DNA of 64,000 nucleotides. Source: Escherichia coli (GTDB lineage Bacteria > Pseudomonadota > Gammaproteobacteria > Enterobacterales > Enterobacteriaceae). The notes beneath the pieces are model-generated. The model searched no databases, was not told where the DNA came from, and was given only the letters and a program-made list of their open reading frames with translations. The stretch lies in assembly GCF_024700885.2 (NCBI RefSeq), contig NZ_CP117016.1; one strand, given 5' to 3'. The position numbers were made by a program, and so were the translations under genes. This document shows, piece after piece, positions 51,423-53,055 of this stretch; the stretch's first letter is position 1; the number at the start of each line of letters is the position of its first letter.

Positions 51423-51454
51423 AGCATCTGTTTTATTTGTTACGTCGTTAGTCA

Positions 51455-51504
51455 TCAGCCCTGACACTACGCAGCGCAAAAAAGCTGCTCAATGTCAGGG
51501 CTGA
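51455..51504 (+). terminator. 12-bp perfect inverted repeat downstream of malZ; possible terminator or junction-associated dyad
   Basis: tcagccctgaca ... tgtcagggctga separated by about 26 nt; the loop is long for a classic terminator. Confidence 0.4.
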
Positions 51505-51609
51505 GTTTGTTAAATATTTGTCCCGTTCGATATGAGCGATTTTTGGTATTCTTTGCCCATGAGGTTATGTACAACCTGCTCCAGGATAACCCTGTATTGG
51601 AGCAAAGAT

Positions 51610-53055
51610 ATGACAATTTCAAATTCGAATTTATTGAAACCGTTTATTACTGGTACTGAGTTGCCACCTTTTAAAGAGGATGTCTTTTCTAAAACAGAAG
51701 AACAATTTAAAAAAAGCCCCCATGGCAAATTGCTTTTCATTTCCGGAAATGAAAACTTAGTAAACATTTCAGCGGAAAAAATCGATGAAATAAAAAATAG
51801 CAAAGATTTCTTTTCAAATATTGTAAATATAATAATTTTACTCATTAAGCATCCTGAGAAAATTCTGCCCATTCTTCATGGTTGTCCTGCAGAGTCCATC
51901 GAACTCATTAAGAATGCGAAACGAACGGGGCAATGGTCATATGAGATGACTGATAAGAACGGGCAGAGTATTGAAGTGTCCTATATTTTCACTGATACCA
52001 TAGATAATAATTATGATGGAAAATTATGCTTAAAAATCTGTAACCCCTGCAACCAAAATGATTCTAGTACACATGAATATAAAATAGATCATCAACAGTT
52101 GAAAAATCACATAAGGCAACTTGAGGAGTGGGCCCTTCTTGAAAAGTTTTATGATAACAACGCTTATTATTCTAAACGTACAAAACAATTAGAGAAGAAA
52201 ATTGCCGATGCGGGGTTTATAGCAGGGAAGGTTAATGCCGATAACTTTAATGTAAAAGAGTTTAAAGACGATATAGCCTCGATGCTTTGTGAACAGCCCC
52301 CCATGCGAACACACCAGATATCTTCATCCGGATACTTATCTGCCGATAAAGTACCCGATCTCTATAAGACAAATTTGGAAGACGCGCAGAGAGATCTGAA
52401 AACAACACCGGTTGACATCGATGGTGTTAGTCTAAAACCAAAAACTCGGGAAAAAATTGCGAAAAAAACTGAGGAAGAAAATGCGAAAAAAATTGCGAAA
52501 CAAAATGCGAAGACCATTGAGGAGAAGAATAGTGAAAAAAACAAGAAAGAAACAAATCCTGAGGATAATTTTGTCTTAAAATTCTCACCGGAAGAAATCA
52601 ATGAGATGCTCCTAGATTACAGCGATGAAGAACAAAAAAAATTAAGACCTTTTTTCACTAGTGATCATATCTATTGTTTGTTTGATGCTTTTAGTCAGGG
52701 TTTGTATAATGTTGCTCGTAATGGCAGTCCACGGTATGCAGGTTTACTACGTCAAATAGCATCCAAGTGTGCGATATTACAAGATTTTGATCAACAATTG
52801 TTCTGGCGCACGTTTTCAGGAGGAGTCTTCCATCGACGTATCTCTGTGAACAGCGAGCCAGAAAAGACAGATGTATGGCGATTCAGTACACAATTTGATT
52901 TTCCATATATAAATGAAAACGGAGAGTTGTCCAGAACGGTACTCATGTTCGAGGGGGTTGCTGAAAGCAACTTTAAAGATATCGCCAATCATTCCAGCGA
53001 ATGTTTTTCTTACAGCTGTTATGCCGCCCCGCTGGATGCGAATGCTAAAAAATAG
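51610..53055 (+). CDS. uncharacterised AT-rich accessory ORF, about 481 aa; hypothesised secreted/effector-like protein, not recognised
   Basis: Long ORF with a ggag RBS about 9 nt before the internal ATG at 51610 (maximal ORF from 51532); markedly AT-rich codon usage versus flanking core genes; inserted between convergent malZ and acpH; Ser/Thr/Asn-rich N-terminus; Lys/Glu-rich low-complexity repeat; no recognisable enzymatic motif. Confidence 0.55.
   Translation: MTISNSNLLKPFITGTELPPFKEDVFSKTEEQFKKSPHGKLLFISGNENLVNISAEKIDEIKNSKDFFSNIVNIIILLIKHPEKILPILHGCPAESIELIKNAKRTGQWSYEMTDKNGQSIEVSYIFTDTIDNNYDGKLCLKICNPCNQNDSSTHEYKIDHQQLKNHIRQLEEWALLEKFYDNNAYYSKRTKQLEKKIADAGFIAGKVNADNFNVKEFKDDIASMLCEQPPMRTHQISSSGYLSADKVPDLYKTNLEDAQRDLKTTPVDIDGVSLKPKTREKIAKKTEEENAKKIAKQNAKTIEEKNSEKNKKETNPEDNFVLKFSPEEINEMLLDYSDEEQKKLRPFFTSDHIYCLFDAFSQGLYNVARNGSPRYAGLLRQIASKCAILQDFDQQLFWRTFSGGVFHRRISVNSEPEKTDVWRFSTQFDFPYINENGELSRTVLMFEGVAESNFKDIANHSSECFSYSCYAAPLDANAKK

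Follow-up and report, generated by a model that had tools for sequence, protein, structure and literature searches.

The perfect 12-bp inverted repeat that lies downstream of malZ in a 64-kb window of Escherichia coli DNA (the whole stretch that was analysed) belongs to a hairpin that looks like an ordinary transcription-stop-type hairpin after malZ, and not like an insertion scar. This hairpin has a distinct structure, lies 3′ of malZ in the orientation of its sense strand, is strictly linked to an insert between malZ and acpH, and is conserved among the genomes that carry the insert. On balance, we lean towards a role as a Rho-independent terminator and/or a protective stem-loop at the 3′ end of the malZ mRNA, which would shield the orphan gene inside the insert from read-through. 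The features discussed below are listed in Table 1.

Table 1. Features at the malZ-acpH locus, in window coordinates.
Feature	Position	Strand	Sequence, source or remark
malZ (maltodextrin glucosidase), left flank of the insertion	49605-51422	+	ORF list; RefSeq annotation of strain 1190 (100% identical) and seven other genomes
Inserted low-GC segment, ~1.65 kb	~51423-53075	+	Junction comparison; GC 30-44% vs 50-58% in the flanks
Left arm of the perfect 12-bp inverted repeat (outer stem, 5′ side)	51455-51466	+	TCAGCCCTGACA
Inner 5-bp stem	51471-51488	+	GCAGC 51471-51475 / GCTGC 51484-51488; RNA fold, alignments
Right arm of the perfect 12-bp inverted repeat (outer stem, 3′ side)	51493-51504	+	TGTCAGGGCTGA
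T-rich tail adjoining the 3′ side of the hairpin	51505-51519	+	GTTTGTTAAATATTT; sequence and alignment
Second, small terminator-like hairpin	51524-51547	+	CGTTCGATATGAGCG, then ATTTTTGG; weak; scan and alignment
GGAG Shine-Dalgarno, 7 nt upstream of ATG 51610	51599-51602	+	Sequence; ATG is the PGAP start in eight genomes
Orphan gene, 481 aa, annotated 'hypothetical protein'	51610-53055	+	ATG 51610 per RefSeq/PGAP; stop TAG 53053-53055
Degenerate 12-nt (4-aa) tandem repeat in the orphan gene	52440-52542	+	Source of in-frame length polymorphism
20-bp spacer between the convergent orphan and acpH stops	53056-53075		No significant hairpin
acpH (ACP phosphodiesterase, 193 aa by PGAP start), right flank	53076-53657	-	ORF list; annotation

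Results

Structure and position of the hairpin

As the earlier note had recognized, the stretch between the malZ stop and the orphan ORF contains a perfect 12-bp inverted repeat, whose arms are 26 nt apart (spacer 51467-51492), the right one being the exact reverse complement of the left. A repeat search lengthened the arms to 21 nt at 86% complementarity because the spacer holds a second stem, GCAGC/GCTGC. This inner stem closes an 8-nt loop, GCAAAAAA, whose A-run differs in length among the aligned genomes; between the inner and outer stems there is a 4x4 internal loop (CTAC / TCAA). The whole hairpin is thus 50 nt long and consists of the 12-bp stem, the internal loop, the 5-bp stem and the 8-nt loop. 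Folded as plus-strand RNA, it has a predicted energy of −32.6 kcal/mol, compared with −14.8 ± 2.4 for shuffled sequences (z = −7.4), and none of 200 shuffles folded as well. Eleven of its 17 pairs are G-C, a stem of the stability expected of an intrinsic terminator.

The gapped inverted-repeat pattern occurs once in the window and in none of 100 shuffles. More generally, perfect inverted repeats of at least 12 bp with a spacer of at most 40 nt are found at only three loci of the 64 kb, where mononucleotide shuffles of the window give a mean of 0.3 instances. A search of Rfam at E ≤ 10 returned nothing at the hairpin, and its two matches were at chance level and both inside the orphan ORF; such a blank is expected for a terminator, yet gives no positive support.

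The malZ stop codon (TAA) occupies 51420-51422 and the hairpin begins 33 nt further on, inside the insert, on the malZ sense strand and 3′ of the gene, which is the location of an intrinsic terminator. T accounts for five of the first seven bases after the hairpin and for 10 of the first 15. Only on the malZ-sense strand is the hairpin followed by GUUUGUUAAAUAUUU; on the opposite strand it is followed by UGAUGACUAACG, without a U-tail. The U-tract is interrupted, reading GUUUGUU here and AUUUGUU... in most genomes, with G or A as its first base (in DNA, the tail of most other genomes begins ATTTGTT...). Our terminator consensus scan of the window, which needs a loop of 3–8 nt and a contiguous stem, did not call the hairpin at 51455-51504. 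The stem of the small second hairpin downstream is not kept in most other genomes, where T51527 is A.

A simple promoter scan, which is insensitive in AT-rich DNA, gave no sigma-70-like call between malZ and the hairpin and no site at threshold between the hairpin and ATG 51610. By eye, a weak candidate (TTGGTA-N17-TATGTA) can be seen at 51543-51571. The orphan gene is served by a GGAG ribosome-binding site of its own, 95 nt past the hairpin; together with the lack of a promoter call between malZ and the hairpin, this fits the hairpin as the boundary of two transcription units.

The insert and its empty site

K-12-like E. coli, E. albertii and the cryptic Escherichia clades lack the insert. 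At empty sites, the convergent malZ and acpH stops are 4 nt apart (malZ-TAA-NNNN-TTA-acpH), and this junction, examined in E. coli, E. albertii and three other Escherichia lineages, leaves no room for a hairpin. All of the empty E. coli matches listed are exactly 352 nt long, the combined length of the flanks and 4 nt. As the earlier note had supposed, malZ and acpH are parted by an insertion: among 5,426 complete E. coli genomes, 1,126 (about 21%) have it, with one copy in each and always at this locus; the rest have the 4-nt junction.

Alignment with insertion-free genomes, proposed earlier as a check, located both breakpoints. The left one falls at 51422/51423, possibly up to 51425, in a junction that reads GAACTAA/AGCATC. 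The right one (GAAGTT/TCAGAG/CGCC) falls between 53072 and 53081, a range that arises because the last codon and stop of acpH read TCAGAG in all insert carriers and TTATAA or TTACAA in empty sites. The acpH stop is TCA on the plus strand (53076-53078), and the terminal Leu codon with its stop (CTC TGA) is peculiar to the insert-bearing haplotype. No target-site duplication was found at the insert borders, where there is at best a 4–5 nt TGAA(C/G) likeness or TGAA(C/G)T microhomology. The target of the insertion was the 4-nt spacer between the two stops, and not the inverted repeat as had been suggested. Nor does the repeat mark the left junction exactly: it is near the left end of the insert, but 33 nt inside the breakpoint.

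Since empty sites and outgroups share the acpH ending TTATAA/TTACAA, the empty state is ancestral. Judged from these junctions, the tight malZ/acpH arrangement shows itself as the ancestral Escherichia state, and the insert is evidently what split this formerly near-abutting convergent pair. A blastn comparison of the insert with 80 acpH loci of other Enterobacteriaceae gave no match.

Two further candidates were set aside. A direct repeat, GTGACGCC(G/T)G(A/T)GC at 53055-53067 and 53090-53102, was rejected as a duplication scar because both copies are at the right end and the same 2 kb holds 28 comparable chance repeats. A 1.1-kb sequence of E. coli HS-02, similar over its first 56 nt to the insert's left end, was discarded as a diverged variant; it is a near-homopolymeric A/T stretch and most probably represents the same AT-rich insert in a poor consensus.

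Distribution and conservation

By blastn, the hairpin occurs once in each of the 1,126 insert carriers, which include O157:H7 EDL933, other O157 strains and Shigella dysenteriae, and in none of the ~4,300 empty-site genomes. Its 48-nt core is identical in 765 of the 1,126 carriers. The outermost T is C in most other carriers, leaving a perfect stem of 11 bp there. These 11 + 5 stem pairs are unchanged across an alignment of eight diverse genomes, and the sites that vary are the loop, in the length of its A-run and by G>A, the internal loop and the outermost pair. One strain carries C51470T and T51489A, which turn a C·T mismatch of the internal loop into a U-A pair; the same strain also has one stem-breaking change. 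Statistically, the conservation of the stems is like that of the rest of the 187-bp intergenic region, with about 6% variable columns in both, and the mean pairwise difference of the region is 2.4%.

The diversity of the insert is at least that of the flanking core genes. The insert is therefore old, and a diversity equal to that of the backbone points to a presence/absence polymorphism of long standing and not to a recent gain. Homologous recombination of the flanks, rather than transposition, is suggested as its mode of spread by the acpH ending peculiar to carriers and by the divergence of the flanks. Two matches in a plasmid collection were rejected as plasmid copies, being 4.9-Mb records, i.e. 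chromosomes filed as plasmids, and a search of a phage collection gave no match to the insert.

The orphan gene and the right junction

The orphan gene occurs only in E. coli/Shigella and is probably ECs0454 of O157:H7 Sakai; its longest mechanical ORF begins at 51532. Its protein gave nothing, or sub-threshold noise, against Pfam and NCBIfam, and an exhaustive phmmer search of 1.84 billion representative proteins returned only its own cluster and fragments. The length of the protein varies in frame from 461 to 501 aa, and dN/dS is mostly 0.7–0.9, indicating almost neutral evolution. A structure predicted from an 11-sequence alignment was unusable (mean pLDDT 38, pTM 0.30). Our literature search found no study of the malZ-acpH insert or of the orphan gene.

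At the right junction, the distance from the orphan stop to the acpH stop, previously put at about 20 bp, is exactly 20 bp. Folding of the right end of the insert gave no significant hairpin (z = −0.7 and −1.5). The earlier note had argued that this leaves no room for separate terminators, which is correct for the spacer itself; terminators can, however, sit in opposing coding sequence, and a weak terminator-like site is found on the minus strand at 53000-52982, ~75 nt past the acpH stop. Convergent overlap of the orphan and acpH transcripts had been described as implied; given a 20-bp spacer without a significant hairpin, such overlap is plausible.

In insertion-free K-12, malZ-acpH is listed as a convergent excludon (ExcludonFinder, PMC12288877). 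The hairpin-free convergent layout of that pair (4-bp spacer) is recreated here by the orphan gene and acpH (20-bp spacer). Unlike in K-12, 1.65 kb and a hairpin part malZ from acpH, so that the convergent partner of acpH, here the orphan gene, differs between E. coli lineages.

Discussion

Alternative explanations for the hairpin

The repeat had been thought to be the ancestral malZ terminator, or else a remnant of the insertion event. A terminator present before the insertion would account for a hairpin immediately downstream of malZ in the correct orientation, but the stops are only 4 nt apart in insertion-free E. coli, E. albertii and three other Escherichia lineages, the hairpin is confined to the 1,126 insert carriers, and the acpH endings common to outgroups make the empty state ancestral. 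Far from being unchanged in insertion-free genomes, the repeat is absent from them, which rules this option out and leaves it next to no chance. It is also highly improbable that the hairpin is a remnant or recognition structure of a mobile event, whether an IS/MITE terminal repeat, an IS200/IS605-type subterminal hairpin or an integron attC-like site. The hairpin does lie close to an end of an insert that is low in GC, holds a single gene and was acquired horizontally; IS200/IS605-type elements have subterminal hairpins and leave no target duplication, and the GTTAAAT after the hairpin fits the attC core GTTRRRY. However, the hairpin is internal to the breakpoint, the right end shows neither a matching repeat nor a significant hairpin, a target-site duplication is absent, and no tRNA or integrase gene is nearby. 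The orphan protein matches no transposase, integrase or other family, the 5,426 genomes searched contain one copy at one locus with no true plasmid or phage copy, and the acpH ending and divergent flanks suggest homologous recombination. As IS/MITE terminal repeats the arms would lie one at each end of the insert, but the two stand together in 50 nt at its left end with no partner near 53000-53080, and the element is neither multi-copy (one place per genome in 1,126) nor linked to a transposase, with no Pfam/NCBIfam family. An IS200/IS605-type origin fails on a right end without significant structure and the lack of a TnpA (Y1) or TnpB match. An attC site would stand 3′ of its cassette ORF, but the hairpin is 5′ of the sole ORF, there is no array and no integrase among proY, malZ, acpH and queA, and of the bounding RYYYAAC / GTTRRRY cores only the downstream GTTAAAT fits.

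A regulatory element of the orphan gene is a fairly unlikely alternative, and it would take the form of a read-through attenuator under MalT control with malZ, or of a palindromic protein-binding site upstream of a promoter. Without a threshold promoter before its ATG, the orphan gene may depend on malZ read-through; moreover, the imperfect U-tract is typical of leaky terminators and the hairpin is kept in all carriers. This must be set against arms that are 26 nt apart and an internal second stem, both unlike known dimeric operators, and against a promoter scan that is insensitive in such AT-rich DNA, where the weak candidate at 51543-51571 is found. A more elaborate version, which we regard as a long shot, would have a leaky conditional attenuator tie the fast-evolving orphan gene to maltodextrin/MalT-induced malZ, with the ancestral malZ-acpH excludon swapped for an orphan-acpH excludon. 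If this were true, about one fifth of E. coli, including O157:H7, would regulate ACP phosphodiesterase unlike K-12. We also think it unlikely that the hairpin is a functionless fossil, namely a terminator brought along from the donor, where it ended whatever gene stood before the orphan, and not yet decayed. The left intergenic region is little diverged, the conservation of its stems does not significantly exceed that of the sequence around them, and the orphan gene itself is near-neutral, all of which would suit a fossil. Yet the insert is old and the hairpin persists in every carrier, with the changes seen mostly in loops, and a stable hairpin with a U-rich tail 33 nt past malZ will act on malZ transcripts whatever its origin.

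The hairpin as a proposed 3′ end of the malZ transcription unit

If the hairpin is a terminator and/or protective stem-loop for malZ, as we favour, transcription of the malZ strand would yield the 50-nt hairpin 33 nt past the stop and then a U-rich stretch, which may end or stabilise malZ transcripts there. The downstream AT-rich orphan gene would thereby be insulated from MalT-driven malZ read-through. The hairpin may have arrived as part of the insert, where it could have terminated a donor gene ahead of the orphan, or it may have evolved in place. In Salmonella arizonae, Citrobacter, Leclercia and Enterobacter-like genomes, a GC-rich hairpin is found ~10–80 nt past the malZ stop, often flanked by an A-run and a T-run, and by analogy these hairpins back a terminator function. 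The genera with such hairpins are those where malZ is not jammed against acpH.

Like the intrinsic terminators of E. coli, the hairpin is a GC-containing stem-loop in the sense orientation past a stop codon, followed by a U-rich stretch at a transcription-unit boundary. Unlike them, its stem is longer than typical and interrupted (12 bp, 4x4 internal loop, 5 bp), and its U-tract is broken (G/A-UUUGUU), with no call in the consensus scan. It also resembles REP/BIME and other mRNA-stabilising intergenic palindromes as a stable extragenic palindrome in a 3′ UTR that could block 3′ exonucleases. We rejected REP/BIME itself as the identity of the hairpin, which is not a dispersed repeat but single-copy in every one of the 1,126 carriers and found once in the window, without likeness to the REP consensus or a match in Rfam.

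Comparison with strain-specific islets

The malZ-acpH insert, whose breakpoints the present comparison fixes, is a small strain-specific islet. It is similar to the O-islands that distinguish O157:H7 from K-12 in being a small, low-GC, single-ORF insertion between backbone genes that is present in O157:H7 and not in K-12. In contrast to O-islands, it lacks mobility genes, a tRNA or border repeats, and it is as diverse as the backbone. Beyond correct annotation, the importance of the hairpin is small: in ~21% of E. coli genomes, O157:H7 and Shigella dysenteriae among them, it would mark the putative point at which the malZ transcription unit ends, and the insert would have brought, or evolved, its own insulation from malZ. 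The orphan gene, for its part, is a clean case of a taxonomically restricted, near-neutral, yet persistently open reading frame.

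The hairpin belongs to an insertion between malZ and acpH

The inverted repeat 3′ of malZ is an ordinary terminator-like hairpin of a small strain-specific islet, sequenced before but unstudied. The window region belongs to the E. coli chromosome, and a 2-kb query around the hairpin matched the canine strain 1190 (NZ_CP023386) at 100% identity. Among 5,426 complete genomes of E. coli, 1,126 contain the whole query; the remaining genomes matched its two flanks only, and each flank-only match listed spans 352 nt, the sum of a 173-nt malZ part, 4 nt and a 175-nt acpH part. Annotation of a K-12-like genome likewise separates the malZ end from the acpH stop by 4 nt (...GATGAAC TAA CGTT TTA TAACGCC...). 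Scanning one genome per species from acpH outwards revealed the junctions TAA TACC TTA in E. albertii and Escherichia sp. E1V33, TAA AGCC TTA in Escherichia sp. MOD1-EC7003 and TAA CGTT TTA in a further Escherichia species representative. Because K-12-like E. coli and other Escherichia share this tight junction, sequence comparison indicates that the empty site is ancestral and that the 1.65-kb segment, with a GC content of 30–44% versus 50–58% in the flanks, is an insertion, as the earlier note had proposed.

Coordinates of features in the window
Feature	Position	Strand	Remarks
21-bp inverted repeat	9774-9826		perfect; ATATACTATAGGGGGGTATGC ... GCATACCCCCCTATAGTATAT; 11-nt spacer; G6/C6 tracts
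13-bp inverted repeat	21695-21724		perfect; TAATGCCCGTCAA; 4-nt loop
proY	48073-49449
malZ	49605-51422	+	stop TAA
Hairpin, 5′ arm	51455-51466		TCAGCCCTGACA
Hairpin, second stem	51471-51475 / 51484-51488		GCAGC / GCTGC; 8-nt loop
Hairpin, 3′ arm	51493-51504		exact reverse complement of 5′ arm
GGAG	51599-51602		7 nt 5′ of orphan ATG
Orphan ORF	51610-53055	+	unnamed, 'hypothetical protein'; stop TAG 53053-53055
12-nt tandem repeat	52440-52542		degenerate; about 5 copies; AAAAAAATGCGA-like
Weak terminator-like site	53000-52982	-	inside orphan ORF
acpH	53076-53657	-	stop 53076-53078
queA	from 53953

Comparison with the insertion-free genomes, the check suggested at the outset, places the left breakpoint directly 3′ of the malZ TAA (51422/51423), although a position as much as 3 nt to the right would also fit since the insert starts with AGC, as does the AGCC spacer of one outgroup. 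At the right end, acpH finishes in TCAGAG (Leu-CTC, stop TGA; 53076-53081) in all eight insert-bearing genomes examined, whereas every empty-site Escherichia has TTATAA or TTACAA (TTA TAA or TTG TAA read in the acpH sense). This insert-specific end puts the right breakpoint between 53072 and 53081, and means that the last acpH codon and stop come from the insert-bearing haplotype, which thus reaches into the acpH end. The junctions carry no target-site duplication, the best resemblance being TGAAC-T (left) to TGAAG-T (right), and we found no right-end repeat able to pair with the left-end hairpin. Neither the ORF list, nor Pfam and NCBIfam searches of the orphan protein, nor the neighbourhood revealed tRNA, integrase or transposase genes near the insert.

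In nucleotide sequence the insert (4.0% diversity for the orphan ORF, 2.4% for the left intergenic region) is as diverse as the flanking gene ends (3.5% for malZ, 2.8% for acpH) or more so. This diversity speaks for a presence/absence polymorphism of long standing. Combined with the acpH end specific to insert carriers, it suggests that the insert spread among lineages via homologous recombination of its flanks rather than by an element-encoded mechanism. The malZ and acpH 3′ ends (51250-51422 and 53076-53250) are only about 93–95% identical to K-12-like genomes, with 12 mismatches in 173 nt for malZ; this exceeds what we expected for E. coli core genes and suggests that the flanks move along with the haplotype that carries the insert.

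Within Enterobacteriaceae, the junction between malZ and acpH has undergone repeated remodelling. Salmonella enterica subsp. arizonae and Pluralibacter have a 200-aa ORF between acpH and malZ (L021 4583-5472; L043 4583-6204) which by eye is AhpC-like, with the peroxiredoxin motif FTFVCPSE. The fetched acpH loci L031, L033, L045, L047, L062 and L078 also have 800–1,100 bp between the two genes; malZ was undetected in the DNA fetched for about 60 of 80 loci. E. coli DCM188-6 (L006 2730-2995) is without malZ, and its acpH lies ~264 nt after proY. In E. coli HS-02 (L004 1501-2612), malZ and a mis-extended acpH are separated by 1.1 kb of near-homopolymeric A/T; we rejected this as a biological variant, because poor polishing of the same AT-rich insert in the assembly most likely explains it.

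Structure and origin of the hairpin

The perfect 12-bp repeat with its 26-nt gap, originally noticed by inspection, proved real rather than a product of chance. Its gapped pattern occurs once in the window and never in shuffled sequence, and perfect inverted repeats of at least 12 bp with a spacer of at most 40 nt occupy only three loci in 64 kb. On the malZ-sense strand the RNA folds into a single hairpin (12 bp, 4x4 internal loop, 5 bp, 8-nt loop) at −32.6 kcal/mol, compared with −14.8 ± 2.4 in dinucleotide shuffles (z = −7.4). Because the spacer carries a second stem, a repeat search returns 21-nt arms with 86% complementarity.

The hairpin had been placed at the left junction and tentatively read as the ancestral malZ terminator, or as a remnant or target of the insertion. 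It is indeed close to the junction, but starts 33 nt inside the insert. Queried against the 5,426 genomes, the 187-nt left intergenic region and the 48-nt hairpin core each matched exactly one place per genome; the core occurred in 1,126 genomes, every one insert-bearing, and in none of the ~4,300 empty-site genomes or the plasmids of these assemblies. This distribution rules out an ancestral terminator and, with the position inside the insert, an insertion target; the lack of a right-end partner and of a target-site duplication tells against a remnant. A dispersed repeat (REP/BIME or MITE) is ruled out by the single place per genome, and Rfam gave no match.

The core is identical in 765 of the 1,126 carriers, and the others differ mostly in loop length (matched lengths of 46, 47 or 49 nt). 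Among eight diverse carriers, changes affect both loops, the terminal one by A5–A7 and G>A and the internal one by T51489A, as well as the outermost pair, where position 51455 is C rather than T in most genomes, leaving a perfect stem of 11 bp; the other 11+5 stem pairs are invariant. In strain 19KM1831, C51470T and T51489A together replace a C·T mismatch beside the inner stem by a U-A pair, and C51465A weakens the stem. This pattern is compatible with structural constraint but no proof of it, because overall divergence is so low (variable columns make up 6% of the hairpin and likewise of the intergenic region as a whole).

Putative function of the hairpin

Located 33 nt past the malZ stop, on the sense strand of that gene, the hairpin is followed by GUUUGUUAAAUAUUU (AUUUGUU... 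in most genomes). Its reverse strand has no U-tail, a simple scan found no promoter-like site upstream, and the orphan gene has a GGAG of its own 7 nt ahead of its ATG. Genera in which malZ stands clear of acpH have a GC-rich hairpin within about 10–80 nt of the malZ stop, often with A- and T-runs arranged as in bidirectional terminators, AAAAAAGGCTCGCTATCGCGAGCCTTTC of S. enterica subsp. arizonae being an example. Given its position and orientation, and the analogy with these genera, the most fitting interpretation of the hairpin is an intrinsic terminator and/or 3′-end protective stem-loop of malZ, which would also shield the orphan gene. It departs from the terminator ideal, however, in its interrupted stem and broken U-tract, and it was not called by a simple terminator scan. 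For these reasons it may be leaky, so that a putative attenuator or read-through variant stays in play.

The right junction

The orphan and acpH stops, noted as about 20 bp apart, are separated by exactly 20 bp. Folding found nothing significant in this spacer (z = −0.7 and −1.5), which makes convergent read-through of the two genes into each other plausible, in line with the earlier note. Convergence is already ancestral here, given the 4 nt between malZ and acpH stops, and a list of convergent excludons identified by RNA-seq includes the malZ-acpH pair of K-12 (PMC12288877). The statement that there is no room for separate terminators holds for the spacer only, as a weak terminator-like site lies on the minus strand ~75 nt past the acpH stop.

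The orphan gene

PGAP chose the ATG at 51610 in all annotated genomes. The 481-aa protein belongs to no Pfam or NCBIfam family, and every homologue is a 'hypothetical protein' of 461–501 aa from E. coli or Shigella; among 1.84 billion cluster representatives, searched exhaustively, only its own cluster and fragments of that cluster turned up. Homologue lengths (461, 469, 473, 477, 481, 485, 489, 493 and 501 aa) differ by multiples of 4 aa because of the 12-nt tandem repeat, which encodes (A/E)KKI-type tetrapeptides, and this indicates that repeat units have been gained and lost in frame. Pairwise dN/dS values run from 0.2 to 1.8, those of the deepest comparisons being about 0.7–0.9. The ORF is open in most genomes despite its 33%-GC DNA, with a frameshift annotated in two of eight copies (FDAARGOS_1268 and OkiPb01695). 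The AlphaFold model was uninformative (pLDDT 38), and a literature search found no published work on the gene. The O157:H7 Sakai gene ECs0453, which has been described as acting in glycogen degradation (PMC5098033), would be malZ, so that the orphan gene is probably ECs0454.

Other palindromes in the window

The strongest palindrome in the window is the 21-bp repeat, which we take to resemble the G/C-tract operators of CsoR/RcnR/FrmR-family repressors; its distance from malZ presumably fits the frmR promoter region. The 13-bp repeat, one of the only three of at least 12 bp, is presumably a terminator.
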